Of a stretch of DNA of 64,000 bases, positions 1-40,153 are shown one piece after another (within the stretch, counting starts at the first letter, position 1; each line of letters begins with the position of its first letter). A program made the position numbers and the translations under genes. The notes under the pieces were generated by a model. That model was given only the letters and a program-made list of their open reading frames with translations. It was not told where the DNA came from and did not search any database. This stretch comes from Candidatus Hydrogenedens sp. GTDB lineage: Bacteria > Hydrogenedentota > Hydrogenedentia > Hydrogenedentales > Hydrogenedentaceae. The stretch is from positions 190,013 through 254,012 of the forward strand of contig JBMFRC010000004.1 of the NCBI GenBank assembly GCA_049968235.1, read 5' to 3'.

Positions 1-1
1 A

Positions 2-168: not shown

Positions 169-1331
169 AACCTACAGAAAAAATGGTTTCTATTTCTCAG
201 ATAGATTTAGAGAACCTTACAAAAGCATTAGAAGAATTTACCAAAACCAGTCAATCATGGGAGCAGGCATATTCATTACTACAAAAAAGGATTTCCGAAC
301 TTAACCATGAATTGGAATTAAAAAATCATGAATTAGCAATGACATCCGAATATTTAGGTAATCTTCTGGAATCTATATCGGATGGTGTTATTGCAGTAGA
401 TCTGGAGGATAAAATAAATCGTTTTAACCGTTCTGCTTCGCTTATTTCGGGATATAAATCTTCGGAAGTTTTAGGCAAAAAATTTTCTGAAGTTTTTAAC
501 CGCCCCTTCTCTATCGAAGAAAATAATGAGAATACTTATCAACTCTGTTCGAAAACAGGGAGGCTCATTCCTATTACAGAACGAAATTCTTTTATAACAG
601 ATTCACATGGAAATGTAATAGGAAAAGTCAAAGTTTTCCAGGATTTAAGTGAAATTCTTGAGCTAAGGGCGCACATTCAACATAAGGAGAGGTTAGCATT
701 AATAGGAGAAATGTCTGCTACCATTGCTCATGAAATACGCAATCCGTTAGGGGGGATACGCGGATTTGCTTCCTTTCTGGCACAGGACTTACCCGAAGAT
801 GACCCAAGACAAAGATTTGTAAAAAAGATAATGCAAGGAATCCAGACATTAGAACACACTATCAATGATTTATTAGAGTATGCTCGCCCTATAGAATTAA
901 AACAGGAAGTAAGACCTTTATGTGAGTTAATTCGTTCCAGTTTAGAATTTCTATCCTATGATAAAAAGAATATATCCATTCTGGTGGAATGTCCTCCTGA
1001 GATAAAAACTAACTTTGATTTTATCCGCATGAAACAGGTTATCACGAACATTGTTGTAAATGCGGTTCAAAGTATTAGCACACAGGGGATAATTAAGATT
1101 AAAGGCGAAGTAGAAAATAAATTTGTTCGAATAGAAATAAAAGATAATGGCTGTGGAATAAAACCTGAAATACTACCCAAGATTTTTTCCCCATTTTTTT
1201 CGACAAAAGAAAGGGGAACAGGTTTAGGATTAGCCTTGTGTGCTAAAATTGTAGATGCACATGGAGGACAAATTAAAGCAGAAAGTGCTGTGGGCGAAGG
1301 GACTACAATCACAATATGGTTGCCTTTATAG
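159..1331 (+). CDS. Cytoplasmic sensor histidine kinase with a PAS domain, HisKA and HATPase_c domains (NtrB/AtoS-like).
   Basis: H-box ATIAHEIRNPLGGIRGF. N-box VVNAVQS. G-boxes IKDNGCGI and GTGLGLALC. No obvious TM segment. A PAS-like segment lies upstream of the H-box. Confidence 0.85.
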   Translation: MMSKPTEKMVSISQIDLENLTKALEEFTKTSQSWEQAYSLLQKRISELNHELELKNHELAMTSEYLGNLLESISDGVIAVDLEDKINRFNRSASLISGYKSSEVLGKKFSEVFNRPFSIEENNENTYQLCSKTGRLIPITERNSFITDSHGNVIGKVKVFQDLSEILELRAHIQHKERLALIGEMSATIAHEIRNPLGGIRGFASFLAQDLPEDDPRQRFVKKIMQGIQTLEHTINDLLEYARPIELKQEVRPLCELIRSSLEFLSYDKKNISILVECPPEIKTNFDFIRMKQVITNIVVNAVQSISTQGIIKIKGEVENKFVRIEIKDNGCGIKPEILPKIFSPFFSTKERGTGLGLALCAKIVDAHGGQIKAESAVGEGTTITIWLPL

Positions 1332-2799: not shown

Positions 2800-4983
2800 A
2801 TGAAAAAAAAAGAGACTATATTTTTTCTTTTAATTATTCTTTTTGCGATTGTAATACGGGTTATATATTTCTACTATATCTCACAACAACCTGAATTTTC
2901 ACACCCAATTATAGATCCTCAATTTAACGATTACTGGGCACATAAAATATTGTATCAGGGTAATTATCCATCTCCAACGGGAGATGACCCTATGATAGAA
3001 AATACACCTTATGGAAGACCGCCAGGTTATCCTTTTCTTCTAGCTTTTATATACTTTCTTTTCGGAGATAATTATAATTCTCCGCGGTTAATACAATTTT
3101 TTGTGGGAATTGTAAATGTTTTTTTTATGTATTATTTTGTTTCGAGAATTTTTGTGAGTAAAAAAGCAGGATTAGTTTCTGCATTTTTAATGGCTATCCT
3201 TTGGGAACCTATTTATTTTGAAGGGGAAATAAACTATCCTGTATGGGTAATCTCACTTACAATAGTTCTTTTATTTACCTCATTACGATATCTGCAAATA
3301 AAAACAACAAAATTTGTGATTCTTTCGGGCTTTTTACTAGGAATTATCGCTCTCTTTAGACCCAATGGACTTTTATTGTTACCTATGTATGTTGGAATTG
3401 TGTTTCATATATTTGGGAAACGGAACTTCAAGAAGGCTCTTGCTCATTGCATTCTCTTTTCTGTATCCGTATTCTTAATAATATCTCCTGTTTTTATTAG
3501 AAACTATATAGTCAGTAATGATTTTTTTTTGATTTCGTGTTTTGGGGGGATAAATACATACATAGGTAACAATGCCCAGTCAACGGGGGACAGTCCTACG
3601 GTCCCGAATATAATTCATTTGTGTGGAGTTGATAATTGGGATTGTTTTAATTATCGATTATTAGTAAAAGGTCTTGGGATAAAACAAGAGGGTCGTTACT
3701 ATTCATTCAAGGAGGCTTCTCAGTTCTTTTATAAAAAGGTTTATGAGTATTGGAAAAAAGAACCTATCTCTGCAATCAAATTAACGGCTCGTAAATTCTT
3801 TTTATTTTGGGGTCCTGCTATAGTTTCTGATGGAAAAGTTATTTATCATGACAGGGAAGCAACATTTCTTCGTTTATTGCCCGGTTTTCCTTTTCTGGTG
3901 GGATTATCTTTTTACTTCTTAATTTTGTTTATTCGACAGAGAAATCAATTACCTCCGGAACTTAAAACGCTTCTATTATTTATTTTTACATGGAGTTTTG
4001 TTTATTCGTTATCTGTTATTCCTTTTTTTGTTTCAGAACGATACCGAATCCCTATTATTCCACCTTTATGCATTATAGGGGGAATAGGTACCGTTTTATT
4101 TCTTAGTAATACTGGTAATCAAAATAAGTTAAACAAGTTTAAACAAATTATTATTTGTTTACTATGCCTTACCCTTGTTTATAAGACACCTGTAAAATAT
4201 GAACCGGATACACCTCGATGGTTTTACCATAAAGCCATTGTTTCCTATAAATCTCAAAATGAAAAAGATGCGGTTTACTATGCTAATAAAGCCATTTCAA
4301 AGAACCCCAATTATTCAGAAGTTTATGCCTTTCTTGGTATAATCTCTCTTAATCATCATGAGTTTAAAGAGGCAGAAAATTATTGTTTAAAAGCATTAGA
4401 AAAAAATCCTGATTATGCTATGGCAAATAATAATTTAGGTTATATTATGGAATTAGAAAAGAAATTTGACCTTGCAGAAAAGTATTACTATAAAGCATGT
4501 GAATTAAGTCCTGTATATACCCTGGCATGGATAAACCTCGGGAGAATGTATTTGTATTATCATAACCAGATTAACTTAGCAAAAGATTGTTTCGTAAAAG
4601 TAACTGAGTTAGACCCCAACTCATGGGTTGGATGGTTTCACTTAGGGAATGTATATATACAAATGGGAGAATACTCCTCAGCGGAGAAATTTCTAACAAA
4701 ATCTCTTTCATTAAATCCGGAAAATGCCCTTATTCATAATAATTTTGGTTTTTTATATATACAGAGAAAACAGTATGAAAAAGCGATAGAGTTTTTAAAA
4801 ACAGCATTAGAAAAAGAGCCACAATTTACAGATGCTATGTTTAATCTCGGGAATGCGTTTAAAGAAATGAAGCAATATGAAGAGGCAGAATATTGGTATA
4901 AAAAAGTTTTAGAAATTGACCCACAATTTACAGATGCAGTAGATAAAATCAATGAAATAAATACAAATAAAAAAACTAACTAA
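2800..4983 (+). CDS. GT-C fold membrane glycosyltransferase (ArnT/PMT_2-like, subfamily A) fused to C-terminal TPR repeats.
   Basis: Polytopic N-terminus with NDYWAHKIL...RPPGYPFLLA, parallel to the ArnT-type loop of the paralogs at 4997 and 30979. The C-terminal third carries canonical TPR repeats (AxxNLGxxY...). Confidence 0.7.
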   Translation: MKKKETIFFLLIILFAIVIRVIYFYYISQQPEFSHPIIDPQFNDYWAHKILYQGNYPSPTGDDPMIENTPYGRPPGYPFLLAFIYFLFGDNYNSPRLIQFFVGIVNVFFMYYFVSRIFVSKKAGLVSAFLMAILWEPIYFEGEINYPVWVISLTIVLLFTSLRYLQIKTTKFVILSGFLLGIIALFRPNGLLLLPMYVGIVFHIFGKRNFKKALAHCILFSVSVFLIISPVFIRNYIVSNDFFLISCFGGINTYIGNNAQSTGDSPTVPNIIHLCGVDNWDCFNYRLLVKGLGIKQEGRYYSFKEASQFFYKKVYEYWKKEPISAIKLTARKFFLFWGPAIVSDGKVIYHDREATFLRLLPGFPFLVGLSFYFLILFIRQRNQLPPELKTLLLFIFTWSFVYSLSVIPFFVSERYRIPIIPPLCIIGGIGTVLFLSNTGNQNKLNKFKQIIICLLCLTLVYKTPVKYEPDTPRWFYHKAIVSYKSQNEKDAVYYANKAISKNPNYSEVYAFLGIISLNHHEFKEAENYCLKALEKNPDYAMANNNLGYIMELEKKFDLAEKYYYKACELSPVYTLAWINLGRMYLYYHNQINLAKDCFVKVTELDPNSWVGWFHLGNVYIQMGEYSSAEKFLTKSLSLNPENALIHNNFGFLYIQRKQYEKAIEFLKTALEKEPQFTDAMFNLGNAFKEMKQYEEAEYWYKKVLEIDPQFTDAVDKINEINTNKKTN

Positions 4984-4996
4984 ATATTAAAAGAAT

Positions 4997-7642
4997 ATGG
5001 ATAACGAAAATAAAAAAAATAAAGATTGGGTAATTCTCTCGTGGATACTTTTGTTTGCGTTCTGTTTTCGGATTATTTATCTCTGGCAATTAGTAGATGC
5101 TCCAGACTTTATTGCACTTCGGCAGGACTTGGATGTTCAGGATTATCAGGCAAGAGCGATACTATCCGGAGATTGGACTGTTCGGGAAGGGGTTTCTGAC
5201 CCACATATTCCAACGACGCCGTATTATCGACCTCCGGGTTACCCATACTTCCTTGCAGTTGTATATTATTTTTTTGACGGTTCCTATCTGGCACCGCGAT
5301 TCATTCATTTTTTTCTTGGACTCGTGCATATTGTCCTAATATATTTTTTAGCCAGAATTATATTTAATAGAATCGCAGGTTTATGTGCATCTTTTCTTGT
5401 AGCCACTTATTGGGCTTTTATTTATTATGAAGGAGAAGTAAACGACCCTGCTTTATTTGTTTTTCTTGTCCCCTGTATATTATTTCTGATTTATTATGCT
5501 GTTACTAAGGACTTTATCTTGTATTCTTTTTTCTCAGGCTTATGTATTGGTATATATGCCATCATGAGACCTAATATTCTATCATTTATTCCTTTTTTAT
5601 CATTATGGATTTTGTTCTTTTTTTATAAGCAGAAAAAACTATTTAAGAGTTTCTTTCATATATTTTTTTTGATAATTGCAATTTTTACTGTGATAACTCC
5701 GGTTACAGTTCGGAATTATCTCGTATCGGGTGAATTTGTGCCTATCTCTACTTATTTTGGGGAGAATCTATTGATAGGAAATAGTGAGGATGCTGATGGA
5801 GTAACGCCGTGGTTGCCTTACCTTCAGGAATTAGAAGGAACGGGTAATTGGTCTGTATGGCATTATGATAATGTTGTAAAGGGTTTAGGGAAATTTTTGG
5901 GGAGAGAAGTTTCACATTCCGAAGCATCAAATATTTTTGCTAAAATGGCTATAAATTATATTATTCATCACCCATGGCAAACATTTTTACTCACATGCAA
6001 AAAAGCTATTTTATTCTGGAGTCCACAAGAAATTACAGAGAACAAAGTTGTAGAGGGGGAAAGACAACATTATATACCTCTGAAATATATGCCTCGATTT
6101 CCTATTGTCCTGAGTACATTTTTATTAGGTTTGTTTTTTTTGATAAAAAATATATTTTTCAATAAGACATTTAAAGATACAAATATAAATATTTATTTTC
6201 TAACACTGGTATTGTTGTTTATATTTACATATTTTGCTTCATTTCTTCCCTTTTTTGTAAATGCAAGGGCTCGTGTTCCGATATTGGGATTGATGTTCAT
6301 CATCGGCGGATACACATTTTCAGAAATTCGGTATTTATTTGTTAAGAGAAGAATAACTCCCGCTCTCATAAGTATTTTTGTTTTAGTAATACTTTTTCTC
6401 ATAACTCATATTGATATTATTCCCTATAAACCGGATATGTGCCGTTGGCATTATGACCGTGCTGACTCTTATCTCCGTGTAGGTCGTGTTGATGAAGCAT
6501 TACAGGAAGTACATGCTCTTATGTCTCGTCCGGAACGTCCTATGACTTACATGCCATTCCGGCTGGGACATGCACTTGCAAAGTTAAATTATTCCGAATT
6601 AGCTATAGATTTATTACGACTGGCACTTAGTCCTGACCCTTCAGAACAGCCTTCTATGTATAGAGAAGATATTTACTATCATATCGGTGCTTTATTTATG
6701 AAATTAAAAAGATATGATGAAGCCATCAAAGAATTTGAAAATGCTTTATCTTTAAATCCCAAAGACCCGAGAGTTCATAATGACCTAGGTGTCATTTACA
6801 AAGAACGCAATGACTTAGTAAAAGCCGAACAAGAATATAAATATGCTATTGATACAGAACCAGAATTTAATCTTGCTATAGCAAACTTGACAGAATTGTA
6901 TATTCAACAGAAAAAATACGCTGAAGCGATTGAATTGCTGGGAAATAGCCTAAAATTACAGCCTCAAAATACAGAGTTACTTTATAATTTAGGATTTGTT
7001 TATCATAATTCGGGACAACTTGAAAAAGCACTTTCCTATTACCAACAAGTATTATCTCATGATAGTAAGGAACCTAATACACTTAATAATATGGCTATGA
7101 TTTATTTAGAAAAAAATGACCTGGAAAAAGCCAAAAATACCCTGTTATGGTGTATATGCAAGAATTCCTATTTTACACTCGCATATGCGAATATGGGGGA
7201 CATTTTATATTCAGAAAACCAACTACCAAAAGCCCTATATTATTATGATAAAGGGCTTGAAACGAATTATGAACATATAGGACTTTGCGCTGCGTTAGCC
7301 TTACTTTATACAGAAATGGGTAATGCCGAGAAAGGGATTGTGGAATTAATGGATGTTTTAAAAAAACATCCAGAGTCCACCAATTTATGGTTTGCTCTGG
7401 GAAATATCTATAAAAATAGTAATCAAAATAATGAGGCTATTGGTGCTTATAATAAAGTATTAGATATAGATAGTTCTTATACATCGGCGTATAGAAATTT
7501 GATGGAAATTTATTTAAATAAAGGAGATGTTAATAAAACACTGGAAATCTTTGAAAAAGCGAAACAAAACATTAAAGATTCTGAACAAATAGAATATTTA
7601 TCCTCTCTTATCCTGGAAAAACAAGGAAATACCAATAAATGA
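4997..7642 (+). CDS. GT-C fold membrane glycosyltransferase (ArnT/PMT_2-like, subfamily A) fused to a long TPR array.
   Basis: VQDYQARAILSGDWTVREG...YYRPPGYPYFLA resembles the ArnT D-x-RYA-x-I-x-x-GDW / KPP-x-YW region. Roughly 12 TM helices, then about 10 TPR repeats. Clear paralog of 2800 and 30979. Confidence 0.75.
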   Translation: MDNENKKNKDWVILSWILLFAFCFRIIYLWQLVDAPDFIALRQDLDVQDYQARAILSGDWTVREGVSDPHIPTTPYYRPPGYPYFLAVVYYFFDGSYLAPRFIHFFLGLVHIVLIYFLARIIFNRIAGLCASFLVATYWAFIYYEGEVNDPALFVFLVPCILFLIYYAVTKDFILYSFFSGLCIGIYAIMRPNILSFIPFLSLWILFFFYKQKKLFKSFFHIFFLIIAIFTVITPVTVRNYLVSGEFVPISTYFGENLLIGNSEDADGVTPWLPYLQELEGTGNWSVWHYDNVVKGLGKFLGREVSHSEASNIFAKMAINYIIHHPWQTFLLTCKKAILFWSPQEITENKVVEGERQHYIPLKYMPRFPIVLSTFLLGLFFLIKNIFFNKTFKDTNINIYFLTLVLLFIFTYFASFLPFFVNARARVPILGLMFIIGGYTFSEIRYLFVKRRITPALISIFVLVILFLITHIDIIPYKPDMCRWHYDRADSYLRVGRVDEALQEVHALMSRPERPMTYMPFRLGHALAKLNYSELAIDLLRLALSPDPSEQPSMYREDIYYHIGALFMKLKRYDEAIKEFENALSLNPKDPRVHNDLGVIYKERNDLVKAEQEYKYAIDTEPEFNLAIANLTELYIQQKKYAEAIELLGNSLKLQPQNTELLYNLGFVYHNSGQLEKALSYYQQVLSHDSKEPNTLNNMAMIYLEKNDLEKAKNTLLWCICKNSYFTLAYANMGDILYSENQLPKALYYYDKGLETNYEHIGLCAALALLYTEMGNAEKGIVELMDVLKKHPESTNLWFALGNIYKNSNQNNEAIGAYNKVLDIDSSYTSAYRNLMEIYLNKGDVNKTLEIFEKAKQNIKDSEQIEYLSSLILEKQGNTNK

Positions 7643-8790
7643 CACATTGTGATGAAATAGAACTAAGCGTTGTATTACCTTGTTTGAATGAAGAACGGAC
7701 TATTGGACAATGTGTACAGAAAACACAAAAGGTTTTCGATAAATATCATATTAAAGGTGAAATTATTGTCGCAGATAATAATTCTACGGATAGTTCCTCA
7801 TCAATTGCGGAACAAGCAGGTGCGAAGGTAGTCAAGGTAATTACTCCTGGATACGGGAATACTCTTCGAAACGGTATAAAAGAAGCAAAAGGGAAATATA
7901 TAATCTTTTTTGATTCTGATTTATCCTATGACCCTGAGGATATTCCTCAAATATTAGAGAAATTACGAGAAGGTTATCCTATTGTTCTGGGGTCTAGGAA
8001 AAAAGGAACGATTGATAGAGGCTCTATGCCATGGTTACATAGATATATAGGCACTCCGATAATGACTTTACTTGCGAATATTTTTTTTAAGGCACATATA
8101 ACGGATATTAATTCGGGTATGCGTGGTATGTCCCGAAAAGTATTTGATGAATTAGATTTACATTCGGAAGGCATGGAATTTGCTTCTGAAATGATAGCAA
8201 AAGCACATTGGACCCAAACTAAAATAGCGGAAGTTCCTATTCATTTTCACTGTGACCAGAGGGGAAGGCGTCCACATTTACATTCTGTTCGTGATGGATG
8301 GAGACATTTACAACTTATGTTTCATTATTGTTCTATTAATTGGTTTCTTATACCGGGTTTTATATTGTTATTTTTTTCATACCTTGTATTTTTTATTCTG
8401 CCTCAGTATATGGATATTTATACATCCTTTTTTATTTCTTTACTAACCAACATTATTGCAACCCAAATTTTATTGATTGGAGTCATTGCTCAGGGTAGAG
8501 TTCGTGGTTCAAAGTTTAGATACATTCCATCAAAATATCTCCTTTTTTTATCCCGAATAATCAAAGTCGAAAAGGGTATGTTTTTGGGTTTAGGGATATG
8601 TTTTTTAGGCATGTTTTTAATGCTTTATACTCTTCGTTCAGGAATAAACATGCCAGATATAACTATAAAAATATTTTTTGGGGGTATTCTATGTTTTGTT
8701 CAGGGGGTTCAGGTTTTATTTAGTTCCATTTTAATCGGGCTGTTTGGAATTCGTGTTTCAGAAGAGGAAGAATTTTTTAGAAAATCTTAG
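7639..8790 (+). CDS. GT2 family glycosyltransferase, polyprenyl-phosphate sugar synthase type (DPM1/ArnC/GtrB-like), with C-terminal TM helices.
   Basis: VVLPCLNEERTI N-terminal GT2 signature. DSD (DxD) motif in FFDSDLSYDPEDI. Hydrophobic C-terminal tail. The ATGA 4-nt overlap with the upstream gene suggests translational coupling. Confidence 0.8.
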   Translation: MTHCDEIELSVVLPCLNEERTIGQCVQKTQKVFDKYHIKGEIIVADNNSTDSSSSIAEQAGAKVVKVITPGYGNTLRNGIKEAKGKYIIFFDSDLSYDPEDIPQILEKLREGYPIVLGSRKKGTIDRGSMPWLHRYIGTPIMTLLANIFFKAHITDINSGMRGMSRKVFDELDLHSEGMEFASEMIAKAHWTQTKIAEVPIHFHCDQRGRRPHLHSVRDGWRHLQLMFHYCSINWFLIPGFILLFFSYLVFFILPQYMDIYTSFFISLLTNIIATQILLIGVIAQGRVRGSKFRYIPSKYLLFLSRIIKVEKGMFLGLGICFLGMFLMLYTLRSGINMPDITIKIFFGGILCFVQGVQVLFSSILIGLFGIRVSEEEEFFRKS

Positions 8791-8805
8791 AGTTATAATA
8801 AAGAT

Positions 8806-10269
8806 ATGAAACATGTTGTATTTGTAATGCCACCATATCCTTATTCTCGTTCCATTGGACAGGAGGAAGGAAAAAGGCAAATTGGGTTAATGCCGCCTTT
8901 AGGTGTTGGGTATCTTACTGCATACTTAGAGCGGACAGGGAAATACCAATGTTATTTTGTCGATGCAGTTGCGGAGAGGTTATCTATTGAGGAAACTGTT
9001 TCTCGTATTCTATCATTCGAACCGGATGTAATTGGAATTTCATCTTTTACGACTTTTCTTCTCAATACTTCATATCAACTTGCACGAAGATTAAAAGAAG
9101 AATGTCCTTCGATTCCATTGTTAATGGGAGGTCCTCACACTACTTCTTTCGGGGAACAGGTGTTGAAAGACTGTCCGTATATTGATTATGTCATTCCGGG
9201 AGATGCTGAAGTTCCTCTTTTAGAGTTATTAGAAAAGATTTTTTGTGGAGATATACCGGATAAGGTAAAAGGCATCATTTATAAAAATGAAAAAGATGAA
9301 ATCGTAGATACGGGCTGTTCTATCCCTGTAGATGATATTGATACTCTACCTTTCCCCTCACGACACATTTATAACCATGAGTTATATGAGCCTTTACCGA
9401 GTTTAAGTCCCAAACGCCCTGCCATGTCGATGATTACAGCACGGGGTTGTCCATGGGCACGATGTAAATTTTGTTATCAGGGAGGGAAATATGCATCTCC
9501 ATTTCGTCGTCGGTCTCCGGAAAATGTTGTGGCAGAATTAAAATACCTTATTGAAAAATATAATGTAAAAAATATTGTATTCTGGGATGATAATTTTTGT
9601 ATCTTTCCTGAATGGATACATAAATTTTGCTCCCTTATAAAACAGGGGAAAATAAAATTAGATTGGTCTGTTTTATCGCGTGTAAATACAGTAACACCGG
9701 AAATGTTAAATGAAATGGCAGAAGTAGGTTGTTACAGTATTCAATTTGGTATTGAATCCGGAAATGAGGAAATACTTAAACTTATTCGAAAAGGTCACAC
9801 ATTAGAACAATGTCGAAATGCAGTCCGCTGGGCAAAATCCGCTGGTATGGAGACAAGGGCTTTCTTTGTTTTGGGTTTTCCTACGGAGACCCCAGCAATG
9901 AGTGAAGAGACTATTCGTTTTGCATGTGAATTAAATATCGATTATGTTGTTTTCTTTTCGTATTATGTAGCACCCGGAACACTTCTTGCCGAGATTGCTA
10001 TGAGAGAAGGGCAGTGTTTTGAATTTATAGGACAACATTTACCTTCTTACCTTCCTAATACCTATCCTGATTTGGAGACATTAACAAAGAAAGTACAATC
10101 CGCCTATCGAAGATATTACCTCAGACCTCGATATTTCGCTCGAACTATTACAAGAACGATTCGTCGTCCCCATCATTTGAAAAATCAAATAAAGGCATTT
10201 AATTATTGGCTTGGATTGAGTTTAAAAAAATGGACTCACAACAAAAATTCAACAGTTAACATAACCTAA
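8806..10269 (+). CDS. B12-binding-domain radical SAM protein (class B-like).
   Basis: N-terminal Rossmann-like B12-binding region (PPLGVGYLTAYL...DVIGISSFTT). The cysteine cluster reads GCPWARCKFC, i.e. CX4CX2C rather than the canonical CX3CX2C. The radical SAM core follows. Confidence 0.75.
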   Translation: MKHVVFVMPPYPYSRSIGQEEGKRQIGLMPPLGVGYLTAYLERTGKYQCYFVDAVAERLSIEETVSRILSFEPDVIGISSFTTFLLNTSYQLARRLKEECPSIPLLMGGPHTTSFGEQVLKDCPYIDYVIPGDAEVPLLELLEKIFCGDIPDKVKGIIYKNEKDEIVDTGCSIPVDDIDTLPFPSRHIYNHELYEPLPSLSPKRPAMSMITARGCPWARCKFCYQGGKYASPFRRRSPENVVAELKYLIEKYNVKNIVFWDDNFCIFPEWIHKFCSLIKQGKIKLDWSVLSRVNTVTPEMLNEMAEVGCYSIQFGIESGNEEILKLIRKGHTLEQCRNAVRWAKSAGMETRAFFVLGFPTETPAMSEETIRFACELNIDYVVFFSYYVAPGTLLAEIAMREGQCFEFIGQHLPSYLPNTYPDLETLTKKVQSAYRRYYLRPRYFARTITRTIRRPHHLKNQIKAFNYWLGLSLKKWTHNKNSTVNIT

Positions 10270-10285
10270 AAATAAAGGATAAACT

Positions 10286-11755
10286 ATGAGAACAAATATG
10301 TTCTTTTATTACTTCATAACAGGATTTCTATTCTCAATAATCTTTCAACAAATAGGAATAACCGAAGAAATATATAATATAGGAAACCGACGAGAAATTT
10401 TTATTGATAATAAATTAATTGATAAATTAGAGAATATATCATTTAAGTTATGTGAGCCTATTCCTGCTGAGAAGGTTTTATATTTTGATAAACCGTGGGA
10501 GGGTAAACACAGTGGATATGTGACCTTAATCCATGACCAAGACATTTATCGCCTCTATTACAGAGGACTTCCTGTTTCAAAAGCCGATGGCTCAAATGCA
10601 GAAGTTACCTGTTATGCAGAAAGCACAGATGGTATTCATTTCATTAAACCATCTTTGGGACTCTTTGAAATAGCAGGTTCAAAAGACAATAATGTAATTC
10701 TTGCTAATGATCCACCTTTTTCACATAATTTTGCTCCTTTTATAGACGAAAAGCCCAACATTCCCAAGGAAGAACGATATAAAGCAGTGGCAGGGACTTT
10801 TGATAGTGGTTTATATACCTTCGTTTCCCCAGATGGAATCCGATGGCGGAAATTATCAGAGAAACCTATACTTAAAGGGGCATCATGGAAAGATTTTGCC
10901 TTTGATTCTCAAAATGTAGCTTTTTGGTCTATTTTAGAACAAAAGTATATTTTGTATTTTCGCACCTGGAATGGTCCCAATCAAGAATATCGTTGGGTAA
11001 GTCGAACAACCAGTTCAGATTTTTTAAATTGGGAAAAACCTGTAGTAATGGATAAAGGAAATGCACCATGGGAACATATATATACCAATCAGACAATCCC
11101 TTATTTTAATGCTCCACACCTATATGTTTCAATATCAGCCCGATTTGTCCCTGGATGTAAAGTATTATTACAAGAAGAAATAAAATCCATAGGGGTTGAT
11201 ATAGATTACAGTCATGATTGTTCCGATGTAATATTCATGAGTAGTCGAGGGGATAATATATATAGCCGATTTTTTTTAAATGCTTTCTTAAAACCTGAAT
11301 ATCCTTTAGAAAACTGGGTATCCAGAACCAATTATCCTGTGCGAGGCATTGTTCCTGCAGGTGATTATCAAATGGCTTTTTATATTCAAAAAAATTATGC
11401 ACAGGACACTGCATATATTCAGCGATATTTACTTCGTCTGGATGGTTTTTCCTGTCTTTCCGCAGGATATGCAGAAGGTATTATTACCACTGTGCCGTTA
11501 ATTTTCAAAGGGGATAATCTGTTTCTTAACTTTGTTACCTCTGCTATAGGTTATATAAATGTAGAAGTTCAGGATATAAATGGAAATTCCATATCGGGAT
11601 ATGAGTTTAGTAATTCCATACCGTTGAAAGGAAATCGGATTAATTTCAAAGTATCATGGAATGATACTAATAATTTATCTTCATTGCAGGGAGCACCTAT
11701 TCGATTATCTTTTAAGATGAAAGATGCAGATTTATATGCAATCCAATTTAAGTAA
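10286..11755 (+). CDS. Exported hypothetical protein with BNR/Asp-box-like repeats; possibly a sialidase-like beta-propeller or glycoside hydrolase fold.
   Basis: Hydrophobic N-terminal signal. Three S-x-D-G/x-x-x-W/F motifs (STDGIHF, SPDGIRW, SSDFLNW). No catalytic assignment is possible from the sequence. Confidence 0.45.
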   Translation: MRTNMFFYYFITGFLFSIIFQQIGITEEIYNIGNRREIFIDNKLIDKLENISFKLCEPIPAEKVLYFDKPWEGKHSGYVTLIHDQDIYRLYYRGLPVSKADGSNAEVTCYAESTDGIHFIKPSLGLFEIAGSKDNNVILANDPPFSHNFAPFIDEKPNIPKEERYKAVAGTFDSGLYTFVSPDGIRWRKLSEKPILKGASWKDFAFDSQNVAFWSILEQKYILYFRTWNGPNQEYRWVSRTTSSDFLNWEKPVVMDKGNAPWEHIYTNQTIPYFNAPHLYVSISARFVPGCKVLLQEEIKSIGVDIDYSHDCSDVIFMSSRGDNIYSRFFLNAFLKPEYPLENWVSRTNYPVRGIVPAGDYQMAFYIQKNYAQDTAYIQRYLLRLDGFSCLSAGYAEGIITTVPLIFKGDNLFLNFVTSAIGYINVEVQDINGNSISGYEFSNSIPLKGNRINFKVSWNDTNNLSSLQGAPIRLSFKMKDADLYAIQFK

Positions 11756-11757
11756 TT

Positions 11758-11764
11758 AAGGAGG
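11758..11764 (+). promoter_or_regulatory. Shine-Dalgarno AAGGAGG, 7 nt upstream of the ATG at 11772.
   Basis: Read directly from the sequence. Shows that SD-dependent initiation is used in this genome. Confidence 0.7.
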
Positions 11765-11771
11765 TATAACT

Positions 11772-12845
11772 ATGCTTTATAAAGCATTAACATTACTTCT
11801 TGTTTTTTTCTTAAACCAACAAAACATTTTAGAAAAACCTCCTTTTTATAAGGATAAGAATAATTTGCTTTATTACATTGGAAATGGAGGAGAAATTCAT
11901 GAGATAACGAGTTTAAAAGAATGGGATATAAGGAAAAATCATATACTTCAAAATATGCTTCTTGTAATGGGTCCATTGCCAGACCGTTCCCATTTACCTC
12001 CTCTGGATGTGAAAGTTGAATCTACAGAGGATATGGGGTCATATTGGCGAAAGAAAATTACATTTAATGCTGAAAAAAATGATAGATTACCTGCTTATTT
12101 GTTGGTACCTAAAAATGTTAATGGTAAAAGACCTGCTATTGTATGTTTACATCAAACTATAGATATTGGGAAAGCCGGTCCTGTGGGTATCGGTGATTCT
12201 AAGAATCGACATCTGGCAAAAGAACTTGCTGAAAGAGGATATATTGTTATTGTCCCGGATTATCCGGGCTTTGGCGATTATAAGATTGATGTATATTCAA
12301 TGGGATATGCAAGTGCCACTGCGAAAGGTATTGGGAATCACCGTCGTTGCATTGACCTGCTACAAACAATGATTGAAGTGGATAAAGATAAAATTGGCGC
12401 TATTGGACATTCTTTAGGTGGACACAACACTCTTTTTTTAGGGGCATTTGATAAACGGATTAAAGTAATGGTTACCAGTTGCGGTTTTACCAGTATGAGA
12501 AAATATTATAATGGTGACTTAACAGGGTGGTCTCATAAAGGTTATATGCCAAGAATAAAAGAACAATATCAATGCAATCCGGACTTACTCCCTTTTGATT
12601 TTACGGAAGTTCTCGGGATATTAGCTCCCCGCCCCGTATTTATTAACGCCCCCATACATGACAATAATTTTGAAGTAACAGGTGTAGATGATTGCGTTAA
12701 TTCTGCGCAAAGGATTTATACCCTTTATAAGGCAGAAGAAAACTTAAAAGGAATTCATCCGGATTGTGGACATGATTTCCCCCCTGAAATCCGAGAAGAA
12801 GCCTATCGTTTTTTAGATAAACATTTAGGCTGGAACCCTAAATAG
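11772..12845 (+). CDS. Secreted alpha/beta-hydrolase fold serine hydrolase (dienelactone hydrolase/esterase-like).
   Basis: Signal peptide. Nucleophile elbow GHSLGG (GxSxG). Conserved downstream CGHD (His) region. Confidence 0.65.
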   Translation: MLYKALTLLLVFFLNQQNILEKPPFYKDKNNLLYYIGNGGEIHEITSLKEWDIRKNHILQNMLLVMGPLPDRSHLPPLDVKVESTEDMGSYWRKKITFNAEKNDRLPAYLLVPKNVNGKRPAIVCLHQTIDIGKAGPVGIGDSKNRHLAKELAERGYIVIVPDYPGFGDYKIDVYSMGYASATAKGIGNHRRCIDLLQTMIEVDKDKIGAIGHSLGGHNTLFLGAFDKRIKVMVTSCGFTSMRKYYNGDLTGWSHKGYMPRIKEQYQCNPDLLPFDFTEVLGILAPRPVFINAPIHDNNFEVTGVDDCVNSAQRIYTLYKAEENLKGIHPDCGHDFPPEIREEAYRFLDKHLGWNPK

Positions 12846-12846
12846 A

Positions 12847-15060: not shown

Positions 15061-15364
15061 AAGAAAGCCTTAAATCACAAGTTATAAGATAGAATTACAT
15101 ACTTACAGTTTAGCAATTGGGTGTTCGTGAATTCCATAGCCCCTTTGTAGCACGATGAATAAATATAAATGTTCAATATCAACAGGAAATAAGACATTTA
15201 TAAAAGTATATAGCAATAAGAAATAAGATAAAGCAGATAATATTAGAAAGCAAGAAGGAGAAATATATACTTGCGATTAAGTATCACCTAAATGCGAATA
15301 CTATTCTGCAAAAACGAAAGATGATTAAAGAACCGAAAGAACCTATAAAACAATCGTAAAACTG

Positions 15365-15983
15365 TTGTATCTACGCCCGAGGATGATAATGAAAGTAGAA
15401 GAATTGAGAAAACTTGATGATAAATCATCACGATCCCATAAACTACGAACCGTGTTCAATCTGAAGAATGACCAGAAAGCAGAGAATGTTAAAGCATTTT
15501 TAGATGAGTTGATGGCAGTCTATCCTTATCCAATACGAATGATACCGACCAATAATGGTAAGGAATCTACTAACTGCTTCTGCCGGGGTAGAAAACAACC
15601 CTCCGGTAAATATATCTTTGGGCACCTCTGTCAGAGACTCGTTATAGGATACTGACTGACTTTCCCTATACACCGGAAATAAATGGTTAGTAGAAGGTTT
15701 TAATGGTATAATAACAGAAATATTAAAACAACATTATTTCACGGATTACAAAAAGTCGATGGATAAATCAAACCAGTATACCTATTGTTATAATTATGTT
15801 CATAAACAACAATTATTAAACAACAAAAGCCCAGCAGAGGCATTAGGTAAATGGTATAATAAAAAATCTTTCCTTTTTCGCCCTCTTTTATTCTATCAAA
15901 TTACATCTTTTCAAAACCTAGCAATTAATTACTATGAGAAAGAAAATCAGACGCAAAGTTATCCCTCAAACCTATTAAACTGA
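15365..15983 (+). mobile_element. Degenerate IS transposase remnant (rve/DDE integrase core, IS3/IS481-superfamily-like). It is 5'-truncated and frameshifted, so it is a pseudogene.
   Basis: Fragment 1 reads ...IRMIPTNNGKEST (the DNG-x-EF region). After a frame change, a second frame reads LTDFPYTPEINGLVEGFNGIITEIL...YNYVHKQQLLNNKSPAEALGKW, matching the PQTNGxVERFN...YNxxRPHxaLgxxTPxE C-terminus. No intact ORF and no N-terminal HTH/DD region. Confidence 0.6.
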
Positions 15984-18249
15984 GTACTTGTTGATACCGC
16001 ATTTCCATTATCTTATTATTAGAGATAACAGGTTCTTTATGCAAAATCTTTCTAAGTTCTTGTTCACTCTTCCATTTATATGGGAAACAGCCCAAGGGAA
16101 GTATACATTGCGAATCTTCCAATTTATGTTTCGCAAAATGGTTTAAGTAATGAGCTGGACAAAAACCATAGTTCATCAATTTTTCAGATTCTTTGGCGAG
16201 AGATCTGTAGTCCTTACTCTTCAAAGCGTTCCAAATAGGTCTCATTGTATAGTAGAAAAATATATTTAACCTTTTGCACTTATTAAATACTTTTTCTGCC
16301 TCATCAGGATTAGTTTCCAAAAGAGATAATGCATATGGAAAACTTATCCAGGAGATAATATCTATTCCTGGCTTTAATAAATTTTCAATCCAGCAAGATT
16401 TCCCAATGGATATCCAATCCATAGCCACCTGAATATACGAGCCTCTTTCAGGTGTCTCGTCTGGATTTATATAGTGGGACAAAATAATCCCATCTAAAGA
16501 ATTTACCTCATTTTCAAAGCATAGTTTAAGGTTGGCCATCAATTCCTCAGGAAGTTCCTTTTTTAACCGAAAGTCTGAAGTTTTTCCGTCAACAATATTC
16601 TTAAGGTTATCTTCTACTCGAAACCCGAAATACGCTAAACCTTCAAAAAATGGAAATTCCTTCACAGTAAAATAAATAAGGTGATTCTCCTCCCACTCTT
16701 TCCTTATTGACGGTGCTAATATCCCATATTCTGTCCTCAGAACGACCCACACCGTATATTCCGAAGGAAGATGCTTAATAAGGTATACGAGGGCATCAGT
16801 GGCTAAATGGAGGGACCCCGCAGAAATTAAGACAGGCTCTTTCTGTTTTAGTCTGGAGCACCAGTGATAGTAAAAAATTGGTGTAATCTCCTGATGAGCA
16901 ATAATGAATATATCTTTACCGCTTACATCTTGGGACAAAAGGTCTGTGCATTCATTCCAGGCAGTATATGGCTTCCCTTGTTGATACATAAGATATTGAA
17001 GAAAAATATATCCCAGCACAACCAAAACCAATAATACCTTCAAAATTCTCTTAGAAGAAGCCCACCTAAAAACCAAATTAATCAGTAGCCCCCACCGAAT
17101 AATCAAAGCAGGCAAAAGAAAGCGGAGTGTCATTACAGGAATCTTTGACACCAGGGTAAATCCTACAAAAAACAATGGCATCAAAAACGCTAAACATATT
17201 AGCGTAAACTCCGGAAGTTCGTCATGTATTGTCTTATCCTTGATACGAGAAAACATCTCCACCAAAAAATAAAATAGTAGAATCAACTCAAAGACAACAT
17301 TCCCGCCCTTAAGGGAATAAACCAATATTTTGTCGACAGCACTTGCAATCATATTAGTAAAATCACTATAGCCAAAGATGGAGAAAATTAAAATTGCAAA
17401 CGATGCAAATCGGGGAACTTCATCATCATAAATCCCAAACACATAATTAAAAATAGTAAATAAACAAATTTGAGGTGTATATGCTACATTAGAAGGCATA
17501 GCAAACAAATCGAGATAAAGCAAAACTAAACAACCCATAAGTAGATTTAACAAACCGAGCATCAGAATTTTTTTCGACCTGTTATTGAGGAAAAAGTAAA
17601 TGATAATCCCCGCCTCAAAGAAGAGTAACCACATATAAATATAATAGGTCAGCAGTAATAAGAGATTTACAAAAATTAGGAGTAAACATTGAGATGTTCT
17701 TATTTCTCCTTCATTCCTTTTGATAAGATTAAAAAATAAATAAAGAGAGCAGATAGAAAGGGAAAAACCCGACGCATGAGGTCTTAAAAGCATACTGTAC
17801 CATAAAAAAGTTGGAATAGTAGCGATTGTCATTGCGGATAAAAAACAAACAATTTCATTCCGGAAAAAAATCTTGAATAATCGGTAGCCAAAAATAACAG
17901 TAAATATACTTGCAATTATAGAGAACAATCTAAAAGATTCCGGAGATATACCCAGCAACTTCACAAATATATAAAATATAGTCAAATAAACAGGGGCAAC
18001 TTCAGGTCCCTGCGTTCCCACCATTTGGATAAAAGTGTACAAATCCTGAACCTTCAAATATGCTACTCCCCAAAAATACTCATCAAACCATATAGAAGGC
18101 TTTTGAGATAAGAACAAAATTAATAAGCAGGTGAGAACTACAAGAATACCTATCGGCAAATACCTTTTTTTTACTAATATCAAAGAGTTATCCATACCTA
18201 TCTCCAAATTACATAATATCTCGAATTCGTATGAGGTCCATAATCTCAC
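15925..18249 (-). CDS. GT-C fold membrane glycosyltransferase (PMT_2-like, subfamily B, WFDEY motif) with a distinct Cys-containing C-terminal domain.
   Basis: WFDEYFWGVAYL after TM1, then polytopic. The C-terminal roughly 330 aa is shared with the 18209 paralog (…HFAKHKLEDSQCILPLGCFPYKW). Confidence 0.7.
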   Translation of the reverse strand: MRLWTSYEFEILCNLEIGMDNSLILVKKRYLPIGILVVLTCLLILFLSQKPSIWFDEYFWGVAYLKVQDLYTFIQMVGTQGPEVAPVYLTIFYIFVKLLGISPESFRLFSIIASIFTVIFGYRLFKIFFRNEIVCFLSAMTIATIPTFLWYSMLLRPHASGFSLSICSLYLFFNLIKRNEGEIRTSQCLLLIFVNLLLLLTYYIYMWLLFFEAGIIIYFFLNNRSKKILMLGLLNLLMGCLVLLYLDLFAMPSNVAYTPQICLFTIFNYVFGIYDDEVPRFASFAILIFSIFGYSDFTNMIASAVDKILVYSLKGGNVVFELILLFYFLVEMFSRIKDKTIHDELPEFTLICLAFLMPLFFVGFTLVSKIPVMTLRFLLPALIIRWGLLINLVFRWASSKRILKVLLVLVVLGYIFLQYLMYQQGKPYTAWNECTDLLSQDVSGKDIFIIAHQEITPIFYYHWCSRLKQKEPVLISAGSLHLATDALVYLIKHLPSEYTVWVVLRTEYGILAPSIRKEWEENHLIYFTVKEFPFFEGLAYFGFRVEDNLKNIVDGKTSDFRLKKELPEELMANLKLCFENEVNSLDGIILSHYINPDETPERGSYIQVAMDWISIGKSCWIENLLKPGIDIISWISFPYALSLLETNPDEAEKVFNKCKRLNIFFYYTMRPIWNALKSKDYRSLAKESEKLMNYGFCPAHYLNHFAKHKLEDSQCILPLGCFPYKWKSEQELRKILHKEPVISNNKIMEMRYQQVLSLIGLRDNFASDFLSHSN

Positions 18250-20458
18250 CGTATCGGGTTTCTATTTTTTGATTCACTGTTTTATTAGGCTCTTTAAGCA
18301 AAATATCCCTTAATCTACTCTCACTATTTGTAGTGAATGGGAAAACACCTATGGGGAGAACACATTTTGAACCTTCTAACTTATGTTCCGCAAGATGATA
18401 AAACACATAAGCAAAAAAATAACCGTCATTTAGGAGCCTCTCAGATTCTTTCTTCAATAATGAATACTCATTCTTTTTAAGGTATTCCCAAATATTGGAA
18501 AACACAAAAGCAAAGTAAGGATTTTGCCCTTTTAGTCTCCGAAATATTTCCTCAGCCACATTCTGATTTTCCAACTCTGATAAAGCATACCCAAAAGTTA
18601 CCCAAGAAGTTAGTTTCTGATATTGCTTTAAAAGAATTCTTGCCCAATCCGACTTTCCTAATCTTATAAGGTCGAGGATTATATGTATAACATTAGTCAT
18701 GCCTATTTCATCCCCAAAATCCCTATAGCGAGCCAATATAATTTTCTCTTCCTCCGTAAACTCATTCTTAAGATTAGCCTGGAGCAGGGGCACCAATGGA
18801 CTAGACGAGTATAAGGATTCTTCTACATAAGGCGACTCTTCCTTCACCTTAAGATTTTCCTCGACGGAAAATATATAACACAAAATCCCTTCCCAAGAAG
18901 GGAATCTTGCCAAGGAGTATCTTAAATTGTATTCATCATAAACGGCGGTCATTTTTTGTTCGAAACTTGGGTCCCACTTAGTATTGTATATAATGCATAT
19001 CTTATGTTCAGGGGGAAGTTGCTTAACCAAATAGAGGAGGAAATCCAGAGAAGTATCTAAAGAATCCGAGGTAAAGATAGAAGGAAACTTTCTCCTTGTC
19101 TTTTCCCGCCAATTGTATTTGAACACAGCACAATCCACATCTGAACCACAAATTATGATGTCATCTTCTCTGAGGTTTTCATTAACATATTGAACGCATC
19201 CTTCCCAATCCGTATAAATACTATTTGCTCTAAACAAAAGATATTGATGTAATGCCCATATTAAAATAACAGCAACAACAAACCACTTTAGTAGAACTTT
19301 TTTAGTATTCCAATTATTCAACATAATAAACAACCAACAGAACTTTGCAACATAACAAACTAAAATATATCGAGCCACCAGAACATTACCACCAGAAATA
19401 AAAGACCAGCCGGCGAAAACAATAGGGCATACAAAGGCAAGTAAGTATATAAATAACAGTTTTTCATCGAATGTCCAAAAGCCTTTTATCAATTTCCAAG
19501 TTGTAGCTAGGAACGAAGCGAAAAGTACCAACGCAATCAATCCGCCTCCAACATTTAAAACTACTAACGGAGCAACATCACATATCTTTTGAATCATCGG
19601 TGGAGGTACATTCGGAGCAATAATCGGCTGAATATAAACACTCCAAGAAACATAAGAAGGCACTTCAAAATTTCTCACCCCAAAAATTATTTCCAACACC
19701 TCCAAAAATGAGTAATTTAAGGGAAGTGCCAAAAACTGGTTGCCATAAAAAACATAAACCAAATACATAAAACCTAAAGAAAAAACTATCAGGTTGAGGA
19801 TAGTAGGAAGTAAATACACAAATTTATCTCTAATTACCCTTAGGAAAAGCAAAAAAATCTCAACAGCAATAATCCAAATAAAGAGATAGTGTGATAAAAC
19901 CATAAAAATATTAATTACAGGAAGAGAAAAAATAAAAAAAAGTGAATTTTTCCTCTCCGAAGACAAACAGCGAATAAGTAAATATAATGAGATAAAAGCA
20001 AACATCTGAACTATGGAGTGATACCTCAAAGAAAAGGCATTCCACAAAAATAGGGGAAAGGATACAAATAATAAACTCGCGGCGAGAGCATATCTTCGTG
20101 GTAACAAACTTTTTGCAATAAGGTAGATAAAATTGGCACTCACAATGTTAAAAAGAACTATTACCCATCGAAAAGATTCCACTGAAACACCTAACCTTCC
20201 ACAAATTAAATAAAGGAAAAAAAAATAAAGAGGAGGGCCCTGGGGGCCATAAGATAAGATATACAGATAAAAAGTAGTGAAACTCGGAACATTTAGGTAG
20301 TCTAACCCTCCTAAATACTCATCTCCCCAAACAGACGGCTTTTGAGCGATTAATAATATAAATGTTAATGTTATAATCGACAATAATAAGTGTTCAATAC
20401 TTCCTATCCGACGGGACAAGTTCCAATATTTACCTATATATATCATGTTAAAATCCAA
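18209..20458 (-). CDS. GT-C fold membrane glycosyltransferase (PMT_2-like, subfamily B, VWGDEY motif); tandem paralog of 15925.
   Basis: VWGDEYLGGLDYL loop motif. Polytopic. C-terminal domain homologous to that of 15925 (…HLAEHKLEGSKCVLPIGVFPF). Its 3' end overlaps the start of 15925 by about 40 nt. Confidence 0.7.
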   Translation of the reverse strand: MDFNMIYIGKYWNLSRRIGSIEHLLLSIITLTFILLIAQKPSVWGDEYLGGLDYLNVPSFTTFYLYILSYGPQGPPLYFFFLYLICGRLGVSVESFRWVIVLFNIVSANFIYLIAKSLLPRRYALAASLLFVSFPLFLWNAFSLRYHSIVQMFAFISLYLLIRCLSSERKNSLFFIFSLPVINIFMVLSHYLFIWIIAVEIFLLFLRVIRDKFVYLLPTILNLIVFSLGFMYLVYVFYGNQFLALPLNYSFLEVLEIIFGVRNFEVPSYVSWSVYIQPIIAPNVPPPMIQKICDVAPLVVLNVGGGLIALVLFASFLATTWKLIKGFWTFDEKLLFIYLLAFVCPIVFAGWSFISGGNVLVARYILVCYVAKFCWLFIMLNNWNTKKVLLKWFVVAVILIWALHQYLLFRANSIYTDWEGCVQYVNENLREDDIIICGSDVDCAVFKYNWREKTRRKFPSIFTSDSLDTSLDFLLYLVKQLPPEHKICIIYNTKWDPSFEQKMTAVYDEYNLRYSLARFPSWEGILCYIFSVEENLKVKEESPYVEESLYSSSPLVPLLQANLKNEFTEEEKIILARYRDFGDEIGMTNVIHIILDLIRLGKSDWARILLKQYQKLTSWVTFGYALSELENQNVAEEIFRRLKGQNPYFAFVFSNIWEYLKKNEYSLLKKESERLLNDGYFFAYVFYHLAEHKLEGSKCVLPIGVFPFTTNSESRLRDILLKEPNKTVNQKIETRYGEIMDLIRIRDIM

Positions 20459-40076: not shown

Positions 40077-40153
40077 GATATCCCAACTCCTTTTAATAAC
40101 ATACCATTATAGGAATTGATATTTACATTTAACATGAAAATTTTTCTGAATCG

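Follow-up and report, generated by a model that had tools for sequence, protein, structure and literature searches.

We examined a 64,000-nucleotide stretch of DNA from Candidatus Hydrogenedens sp. (GenBank assembly GCA_049968235.1, contig JBMFRC010000004.1, positions 190,013 to 254,012; hereafter the window, to which all coordinates refer) that carries six full-length genes for predicted membrane glycosyltransferases of the GT-C fold and one pseudogene fragment, seven copies all within 32 kb. Six such genes in 32 kb with conserved synteny are not a product of chance, and a conserved operon holding two of them also encodes a glycosyltransferase of family 2 (GT2), apparently one that synthesises polyprenyl-phosphate sugars. 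These enzymes are newly recognised members of families already known, and their arrangement is a variant of a known system. A core mechanism in which GT2 makes a lipid-phosphate-linked sugar that GT-C enzymes then use is probable. The fuller interpretation, extracytoplasmic 'three-component' polyprenyl-phosphate-sugar glycosylation in which each paralog chooses its acceptor by its C-terminal tail, is tentative, and we rate it slightly short of an even chance.

Two subfamilies of GT-C proteins and their tails

The GT-C genes and the GT2 gene are as follows.

2800..4983, plus strand: A1, GT-C protein (PMT_2, 44.2 bits) with a tetratricopeptide repeat (TPR) tail matching TPR families, 727 amino acids (aa)
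4997..7642, plus strand: A2, GT-C protein (PMT_2, 42.9 bits) with a TPR tail, 881 aa
7639..8790, plus strand: GT2, polyprenyl-phosphate sugar synthase type (Glycos_transf_2, 99.6 bits), 383 aa, with C-terminal transmembrane (TM) helices
12847..15060, minus strand: B1, divergent GT-C protein (PMT_2, 21-22 bits; WWDEY), 737 aa, convergent with the plus-strand operon
15925..18249, minus strand: B2, divergent GT-C protein, 774 aa, with ATG 18195 the probable true start
18209..20458, minus strand: B3, divergent GT-C protein (PMT_2, 32.2 bits; WGDEY), 749 aa, 31% identical to B2
22566..22895, minus strand: B1', pseudogene, a partial copy of the B1 5' end (BLASTP and DNA match to B1)
30979..34749, minus strand: A3, GT-C protein (PMT_2 in the N-terminal domain, 41.2 bits) with a TPR tail of about 22 repeats, 1256 aa

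The six full-length open reading frames (ORFs) were all found where the original prediction had placed them, the fragment that it mentioned lies at 22566-22895, and BLASTP separated A1, A2 and A3 from B1, B2 and B3 into the two subfamilies it had proposed; its overall span of 2800-20458 was too short, omitting A3 and the fragment. The A proteins are 27-38% identical over their full length (BLASTP), and B1 is a distant member of the other group (E 2e-11 to B3). Four of the six (A1, A2, A3 and B3) exceed the gathering cut-off of Pfam PMT_2 (PF13231; 26.1 bits), B1 falls below it, and B2 has no match. All six are nevertheless predicted to be GT-C enzymes whose first periplasmic loop retains its acidic motif, on the combined grounds of PMT_2 matches, AlphaFold models and fold searches. 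The B2 model, built from a B-family alignment of 40 sequences (the three window proteins and 37 relatives), had a predicted local distance difference test (pLDDT) score of 90.2 and a predicted template modelling (pTM) score of 0.91; the A2 model (63 sequences) had a pLDDT of 94.1 and a pTM of 0.82. The models show helical membrane domains at residues 5-470 of A2 and 19-425 of B2, in agreement with hydropathy. In a Foldseek search with B2, the top 36 PDB matches were all GT-C proteins (STT3, PglB, AglB, ArnT, ALG12, Pmt4, AftA, DPY19).

It is very improbable that the six proteins are something other than glycosyltransferases, whether an unrelated membrane family or inactive GT-C relics kept as TPR scaffolds, and this explanation is already largely refuted. 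What speaks for it is the weakness or absence of the PMT_2 match in B1 and B2, together with the lack, in either family, of a PDB relative recognisable by sequence: A2 alone, a profile of the A N-terminal domain and the B profile each retrieved no GT-C chain, and the output of the full-length A profile was swamped by TPR proteins, which left the fold searches as the informative ones. Against it stand the confident models, the exclusively GT-C top folds, loop-1 acidic residues that are invariant across 40-63 homologs, and strong conservation of the TM domains between orthologs. The B profile also finds 23,150 representative proteins in a HMMER search at E <= 1e-3 (182 at E <= 1e-30), and PMT_2 matches at E <= 0.001 occur in 33 of the 40 B-family sequences (TPR models in 8 of 40). 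Assignment by profile to an unrelated membrane family, which the original prediction had named as the outcome that would overturn it, was not what these searches gave; the GT-C-only folds and invariant loop acids speak against such a family, which was rejected.

The description of the A proteins as ArnT-like survives at the level of fold; no ArnT appeared in the PDB sequence or profile searches, nor was an ArnT model among the NCBIfam matches of A1 (best 25 of 30 families) or A2 (best 25 of 36). In NCBIfam, B2 and B3 had no matches and B1 had one unrelated weak match. The six proteins gave no Pfam match to PF02366, MIR, PMT_4TMC or DUF1736 at E <= 0.01, and the name 'glycosyltransferase family 39' carried by homologs is an NCBI annotation label only. 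Sequence comparison thus does not support membership in ArnT, PMT/GT39 or TMTC, and ArnT orthology of either subfamily was rejected, the similarity lying in the fold and not in the sequence.

An acidic loop motif is present in all six window proteins and in the pseudogene. For the A family, the loop sequence given in the original prediction holds for A2 (VQDYQARAILSGDW...RPPGYP) and A3 (VQDYFARAIVTGDW...RPPGHG) and is looser in A1 (NDYWAHKI...RPPGYP), so that the family is better summarised as (Q/N)DY...RPPG(Y/H). A1 does bear the invariant D/D, RPPG and EGE motifs. Across 13-63 A-family sequences, D44 never varies, and D49, RPPG, E145-G-E147 and R239-N240 vary little or not at all; the last three motifs face the periplasm in the predicted topology. 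The proposed W(W/F)DEY loop of the B family fits B1 (WWDEY) and B2 (WFDEY); B3 has WGDEY, so the motif is W-x-DEY. All 40 sequences share its D56, and those of the closer set share W54 and E57 as well. From the model and from alternate loops rich in K/R, A2 is predicted to have 11 TM helices, the number given to A1 and A3 too, with the N-terminus inside and the tail in the periplasm. The tails are placed there because the last TM helix runs from inside to outside and the loops inferred to be cytoplasmic are K/R-rich; in B2, likewise, a basic loop precedes the last helix (401-425), after which comes an alpha/beta domain.

The tails themselves differ between the subfamilies. Those of A1-A3 are canonical TPR with strong matches, including the long tail of A3, for which about 20 repeats had been claimed: Pfam TPR_2 marks 17 stretches, and 766 aa would hold about 22. 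Those of B1-B3 are not canonical TPR and consist of an alpha/beta domain followed by helical repeats (residues 447-544 and 568-773 in the B2 model); the B1 tail weakly resembles the A3 TPR region by BLASTP. Ortholog tails are as well conserved as membrane domains. Tail identity is 63-88% between orthologs (88%, 78% and 63% for A3) and only about 25% between A paralogs, and the tails of B2 and B3 are 76% identical to those of their orthologs, compared with 70% for the membrane domain. As far as sequence conservation can suggest, this pattern fits paralog-specific binding partners.

Orthologs of each paralog are 72-91% identical and paralogs 25-48%, so the duplications are old and a recent burst of paralogs was rejected. 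The kinship of A with B rests on their common PMT_2 matches and fold, because profile-profile comparison linked them at only 62% probability (E 7e-5) and over TM2-TM6 only. The fragment at 22566-22895 differs in age: its protein is 72% identical to B1 residues 8-112, its DNA is 92% identical to B1 over 258 bp, and it contains in-frame stops, all of which identify it, at the sequence level, as a pseudogene derived from a recent, incomplete duplication of the 5' end of B1. The listed GTG start of B2 (18249) overlaps B3 by 41 nt; ATG 18195 (M19) is the likelier start, because orthologs align only from about residue 30.

The conserved operon and its neighbouring modules

Gene order was compared in a scan of one genome per species, after which the window proteins were searched in the recovered loci by tblastn. 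Loci from related genomes carry L-numbers; L084 is a distant Hydrogenedentes chromosome (OY782877.1) and L004 comes from GCA_017880035.1. The scan yielded 78 loci containing A-type genes, almost all of them in Hydrogenedentota and a small number in Planctomycetota and Eisenbacteria, with several paralogs per genome. Proteins identical to those of the window (GC about 34%, no tRNA genes) are present in GCA_049971155.1 and GCA_049969095.1; the nearest named relative is Ca. Hydrogenedens terephthalaticus, in which the A2 N-terminal domain is 91% identical.

The original prediction of a polyprenyl-phosphate sugar synthase at 7639 is borne out by the closest PDB relatives of GT2, namely the dolichol phosphate mannose (Dol-P-Man) synthase (DPMS) of P. 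furiosus (5mlz, E 2e-16), ArnC (2e-11) and GtrB (8e-11). Residues 6-288 align with the P. furiosus enzyme with the DxD motif in register (FDSDL vs MDADL), and the C-terminal 150 aa are hydrophobic. The best NCBIfam matches (AglJ, PpgS, Dol-P-hexose transferase, ArnC, PgfS) without exception model polyprenyl-phosphate sugar synthases; none reaches its cut-off, and AglJ comes first (132 bits, cut-off 325). The enzyme class is therefore supported by sequence similarity, with the sugar not assigned by any equivalog cut-off. GT2 is translationally coupled to A2 (its start at 7639 and the A2 stop at 7642 overlap by 4 nt), and its adjacency to GT-C genes is kept even in the distant genome L084. This adjacent, conserved GT2 lends indirect support to a sugar donor linked to polyprenyl phosphate or diphosphate for the GT-C enzymes.

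The other genes of the operon, the inserted module and the A3 cluster are listed here.

1..168, plus strand: 3' end of an upstream ORF running off the left edge, whose TAA (166-168) overlaps the start codon of the next gene
159..1331, plus strand: PAS histidine kinase, HK (Pfam PAS, HisKA, HATPase_c)
1364..2755, plus strand: NtrC-type sigma-54-dependent response regulator, RR (Pfam Response_reg, Sigma54_activat at 234.6 bits, HTH_8)
8806..10269, plus strand: rSAM1, B12-binding radical SAM enzyme (Pfam B12-binding, Radical_SAM)
10286..11755, plus strand: 489-aa protein with a hydrophobic N-terminus, probably exported (weak GH130-like match, E 2.6e-5)
11772..12845, plus strand: alpha/beta hydrolase resembling CE15 carbohydrate esterases (Pfam Peptidase_S9, GCE_fung)
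15365..15655, plus strand: IS481-family transposase remnant (tblastn against plasmids)
20762..22300, plus strand: rSAM2, B12-binding radical SAM enzyme (Pfam matches), divergent from B3-B2
23087..23389, minus strand: truncated N-terminal fragment of a B12-binding radical SAM gene, 100-aa ORF (Pfam B12-binding, 35.5 bits)
23440..26109, minus strand: WbuX, HisF2/WbuZ and HisH, a sugar acetamidino (amidotransferase) trio (NCBIfam, all above cut-off)
26054..27799, minus strand: NodU-like carbamoyltransferase (Pfam Carbam_trans_N, Carbam_trans_C)
27830..28816, minus strand: radical SAM enzyme (top NCBIfam matches radical SAM/SPASM-type maturases, all below cut-off)
28813..29745, minus strand: LPG_synthase_TM membrane protein with a flippase-like domain (PF03706, 75.3 bits)
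29770..30966, plus strand: DegT-family sugar aminotransferase (Pfam, 211.5 bits)

The order HK-RR-A1-A2-GT2-rSAM1, usually followed by the 489-aa protein and the esterase and by a convergent B1, is kept in 7-9 metagenome-assembled genomes (MAGs) of the Hydrogenedens clade, across which identity drops to 67% for A2 and 38% for B1. Adjacency of HK/RR to the operon is kept in 9 loci, and the position of B1 in at least 7. The two-component pair does not head the operon, as had been proposed: the upstream plus-strand ORF overlaps the HK start, and relatives have two more upstream genes. In L006 (2212-5169) and L004 (2139-5213) the operon opens with a TPR/YfiO-like (BamD-like) protein of 832-867 aa, single-pass with a periplasmic domain, which precedes a 148-149 aa protein, the counterpart of the ORF cut off at the window's left edge, and then HK. 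A search with the sigma-54 -24/-12 pattern TGGCAC-N5-TTGC (<=2 mismatches) gave no site in the 44-bp gap before A1; a single site with 1 mismatch falls within the HK gene. Elsewhere in the window, a sigma-54-like site with 2 mismatches (51772-51786, minus strand) lies upstream of a cyclase/HEAT/RND gene block.

The 489-aa protein and the esterase are retained in the operon within the Hydrogenedens clade and are absent from L084 and L004. The former matches neither a Pfam family nor, by sequence, any PDB entry; in the PDB the latter matches esterases that act on glucuronoyl esters and acetyl xylan (E 1e-10 to 1e-7). The two may either process the glycoconjugate or be unrelated catabolic genes.

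The locus as a whole is not a single operon: the conserved plus-strand operon includes GT2, B1 is convergent to it, B2-B3-rSAM2 is inserted, and the A3 cluster is separate. The trio rSAM2/B3/B2 occurs at an unrelated position in GCA_017880035.1 (89%, 72% and 72% identity); in Ca. H. terephthalaticus and L009 it is missing from the interval between B1 and wbuX. In the window it is flanked by an IS481 remnant, the B1 pseudogene and the truncated B12-binding radical SAM fragment. The remnant was not confirmed as a transposase by a Pfam scan and was then identified by tblastn against plasmids, with 34-36% identity (E 2e-5) to annotated IS481 transposase genes; it marks the edge of the inserted module. 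The pseudogene and the truncated radical SAM gene, side by side, are scars of recent rearrangement.

A3 orthologs always adjoin genes for DegT, LPG_synthase_TM, radical SAM, carbamoyltransferase, HisH, HisF2 and WbuX. Such A3 orthologs with the DegT-to-wbuX cluster are found in L037, L042, L043, L046 and L047, and the operon and this cluster are neighbours on one contig in three cases (L007/L037, L009/L042, L011/L046). Other A paralogs (45-50% identical) are scattered single genes. WbuX (218.6 bits), AglZ/HisF2 (327.7) and HisH (197.6) all exceed their NCBIfam cut-offs, a sign that a sugar is modified with an acetamidino group; DegT is similar to the models LegC, PseC and ArnB but stays below the cut-off of each. 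The LPG_synthase_TM protein at 28813 scores 30.9 bits against the TIGR00374 flippase-like domain (cut-off 43.2), and its family also adjoins GT-C genes in L084. Genes of the A3 cluster could supply and flip the sugar.

These arrangements allow a composite cluster, in which only A1, A2, GT2, rSAM1 and probably B1 cooperate, B2-B3-rSAM2 and A3 being separate modules, each perhaps with its own donor, and the seven-copy expansion being partly an accident of gene order. We consider this unlikely, though by no means negligible. The unrelated position of the B2-B3-rSAM2 trio in one relative, its absence from two others, the debris at its borders and the age of the paralogs are all as such a history would leave them. 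Yet in several genomes the operon lies near the A3 cluster, and the compact cluster of GT2, rSAM1, B-type GT-C, flippase-like and B12-binding radical SAM genes in L084 argues for a real functional link; a composite origin would also leave the core mechanism standing.

Proposed mechanism, acceptors and related systems

Fold, motifs and conserved gene order are established here; for the donor, flipping, catalysis and acceptors, we infer five steps. Cytoplasmic DegT, WbuX/HisH/HisF2, carbamoyltransferase and radical SAM enzymes would first tailor a nucleotide amino-sugar. The DPMS/ArnC/GtrB-type GT2 would then place a single sugar on polyprenyl phosphate at the inner membrane face, and the lipid-linked sugar would be flipped, with the LPG_synthase_TM protein as candidate. 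In the periplasm, the six GT-C paralogs would transfer the sugar by means of the conserved loop-1 Asp/Glu, each picking its acceptor with its own tail: a TPR superhelix in A1-A3, alpha/beta plus helical repeats in B1-B3.

The closest counterpart in architecture is TfpW of Pseudomonas aeruginosa Pa5196/PA7, an 11-TM GT-C enzyme with a periplasmic TPR domain that transfers D-arabinofuranose to pilin; it was modelled on ArnT (membrane part) and OGT (TPR part) and uses a lipid-linked monosaccharide donor and a protein acceptor (10.1101/2020.04.19.049825). Compared by description only, A1-A3 are built alike. TfpW differs in its size (646 aa) and short TPR domain, set against about 22 repeats in A3, and tfpW lies directly downstream of the gene for its acceptor, pilA, whereas the window has no pilin gene. 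In eukaryotes, TMTC1-4 combine GT-C and TPR in a cadherin O-mannosylation pathway (PMC7801869); A1-A3 are analogous in architecture to these GT105 enzymes but have no DUF1736 match, and structural alignments with PMT (GT39)/TMTC show a sequence identity of 11-14%.

In known three-component systems, such as GtrA/GtrB/GtrC, CsbB/GtcA/YfhO and the GT136 pentofuranose system, a polyprenyl-phosphate sugar synthase (GT2-type or other) and a flippase serve a GT-C enzyme whose variable extracytoplasmic part sets the acceptor (PMC11127046, PMC7389260). The window likewise has GT-C enzymes and a GT2, the latter with a GtrB match. It differs from these in having six GT-C paralogs with TPR or helical-repeat tails where they have one GT-C, an LPG_synthase_TM candidate in place of a GtrA or MATE flippase, and ties to B12-binding radical SAM genes and a sigma-54 two-component pair. 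Also among the closest systems are RgtE with RgtA-D/F (Rhizobium galacturonic acid (GalA) transfer) and ArnC/ArnT (4-amino-4-deoxy-L-arabinose (Ara4N) transfer). Streptococcal GtrB and the GT-C enzyme PgtC2 glycosylate extracytoplasmic regions of membrane-associated proteins (PMC12041528). Like the window, the GtrB/PgtC2 and Pgf systems pair a GtrB-type GT2 with a GT-C (window GT2 against PgfS, E 1.3e-12, below cut-off); they differ in being Gram-positive, in having Ser/Thr-rich disordered acceptors and in that no TPR tails have been described for them.

By analogy with TfpW/pilin and TMTC/cadherins, the acceptors of the A-type enzymes may be specific envelope proteins, a proposal that we advance tentatively and rate at or a little under the interpretation as a whole. 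The protein mannosyltransferases (PMTs) among the top fold matches were counted in favour of protein acceptors. In about 1.16 Mb of flanking sequence, three of six pilin-like ORFs stand directly beside A-type paralogs; these are DUF1559/N_methyl pseudopilin-like genes in Hydrogenedentota loci (L005, 8828-9784; L058, 6391-7443; L079, 4180-5187), and no pilin-like ORF was found in the window. Pseudopilin-like proteins are, by analogy, a possible acceptor class, if a weak lead.

The same chemistry could instead serve glycan or lipid acceptors such as lipid A, the lipopolysaccharide (LPS) core, O-antigen or exopolysaccharide, the tails binding polymer or bridging to outer-membrane machinery and each paralog decorating a different position; we hold this possible, if doubtful. 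One GT2 serving several GT-C paralogs with different sites is the arrangement of the Rgt system, in which bactoprenyl-P-GalA comes from RgtE and lipid A is the target of RgtD and RgtF (PMC7663294). O-antigen modification by three-component systems is widespread, and the C-terminal domain of a GT136 enzyme is a glycan-binding carbohydrate-binding module (CBM) (PMC11127046). Further, the WbuX/HisF2/HisH, DegT and carbamoyltransferase genes are typical of LPS/O-antigen sugar pathways, exported esterase-like and GH130-like genes lie within the operon, and OEP and BamD/YfiO-like genes point to an outer membrane. Several observations count in the other direction: the window has no Wzx/Wzy/WaaL, no ABC-transporter O-antigen genes and no array of Leloir glycosyltransferases, and the characterised GT-C enzymes with TPR (TfpW, TMTC) act on proteins. 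To our knowledge, no characterised lipid A, core or O-antigen GT-C has a TPR tail of 8-22 repeats.

Several findings weigh against tail-directed glycosylation of proteins by a single donor system. A co-conserved acceptor gene, for which the original prediction had suggested a search, was not found in the window. Fold searches do not separate the acceptor classes, Pmt and STT3 scoring close to ALG12, AftA and ArnT, and periplasmic TPR domains also occur in polysaccharide export proteins (BcsC, PMC11379886), which equally favours glycan acceptors. Most other A-type paralogs in the phylum are isolated with no GT2 nearby. B2 and B3 need not use the GT2 donor, because their module lies elsewhere in a relative and beside an IS481 remnant here. 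No GtrA- or MATE-type flippase is present among the annotated window genes, small ORFs not having been scanned, and a flippase role for the LPG_synthase_TM candidate is a hint at the level of the family. Lastly, the organism is known only from MAGs. A literature search on bacterial GT-C plus TPR oligosaccharyltransferases in Bacteroidota and on Hydrogenedentes glycosyltransferases returned nothing specific.

Radical SAM genes, neighbouring genes and wider meaning

The link between B12-binding radical SAM genes and GT-C genes and the non-TPR tails of the B proteins are the only unusual features of the locus. rSAM1 begins 15 nt after GT2. In L084, orthologs of GT2 (47% identity) and rSAM1 (56%) lie in a cluster with a radical SAM/SPASM gene, two B1-like GT-C genes, LPG_synthase_TM and a second B12-binding radical SAM gene. 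An rSAM1 homolog on a different contig stands in convergent orientation to an 876-aa PMT_2 gene, and a third rSAM1 context lacks GT-C genes. Genes for B12-binding radical SAM enzymes recur beside GT2/GT-C genes in the window (8806-10269, 20762-22300, 23087-23389) and in L003, L084 and L085; no description of such coupling was found in the literature searched. Against NCBIfam, rSAM1 reaches 185 bits for HpnJ (cut-off 578) and 181 for BchE (cut-off 481), and rSAM2 scores lower still. Identity of rSAM1 with either was rejected, both scores being far below cut-off, and rSAM1 and rSAM2 are best described from their sequences as putative generic B12-binding radical SAM enzymes. In hopanoid synthesis, the GT2 enzyme HpnI makes the compound on which HpnJ performs a ring rearrangement. 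That the window enzymes act on the lipid-linked sugar or its carrier before transfer, by C-methylation or an HpnJ-like ring rearrangement, is a quite improbable idea; if true, it would mean an undescribed polyprenyl-phosphate donor and envelope glycan or protein modification, delivered by tail-diversified GT-C enzymes of a family specific to Hydrogenedentota and neighbours.

Other genes lie farther along the window. Two minus-strand stretches (38436-42697 and 44212-50922) hold an FHA-GAF-adenylate/guanylate cyclase, an 847-aa HEAT-repeat protein and a resistance-nodulation-division (RND) efflux set (OEP, hexapeptide transferase, AcrB-type pump, HlyD). Positions 52002-54734 of the plus strand hold a radical SAM gene and, after it, a Memo-AMMECR1 fusion (the AmmeMemoRadiSam arrangement); the gene that comes next encodes a 1185-aa FMN_bind/Fer4_5 protein (54737-58294).

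Absent experiments, the finding is a well-supported annotation and not a discovery. It offers a concrete, testable model for envelope decoration in the uncultured phylum Hydrogenedentota, in which one lipid-linked donor pathway would feed several GT-C enzymes and the periplasmic tails should reveal the targets. If those targets are proteins, the system would be a bacterial counterpart of the substrate choice seen in TMTC and TfpW, and its members would be acceptor-specific glycosyltransferases for glycoengineering.

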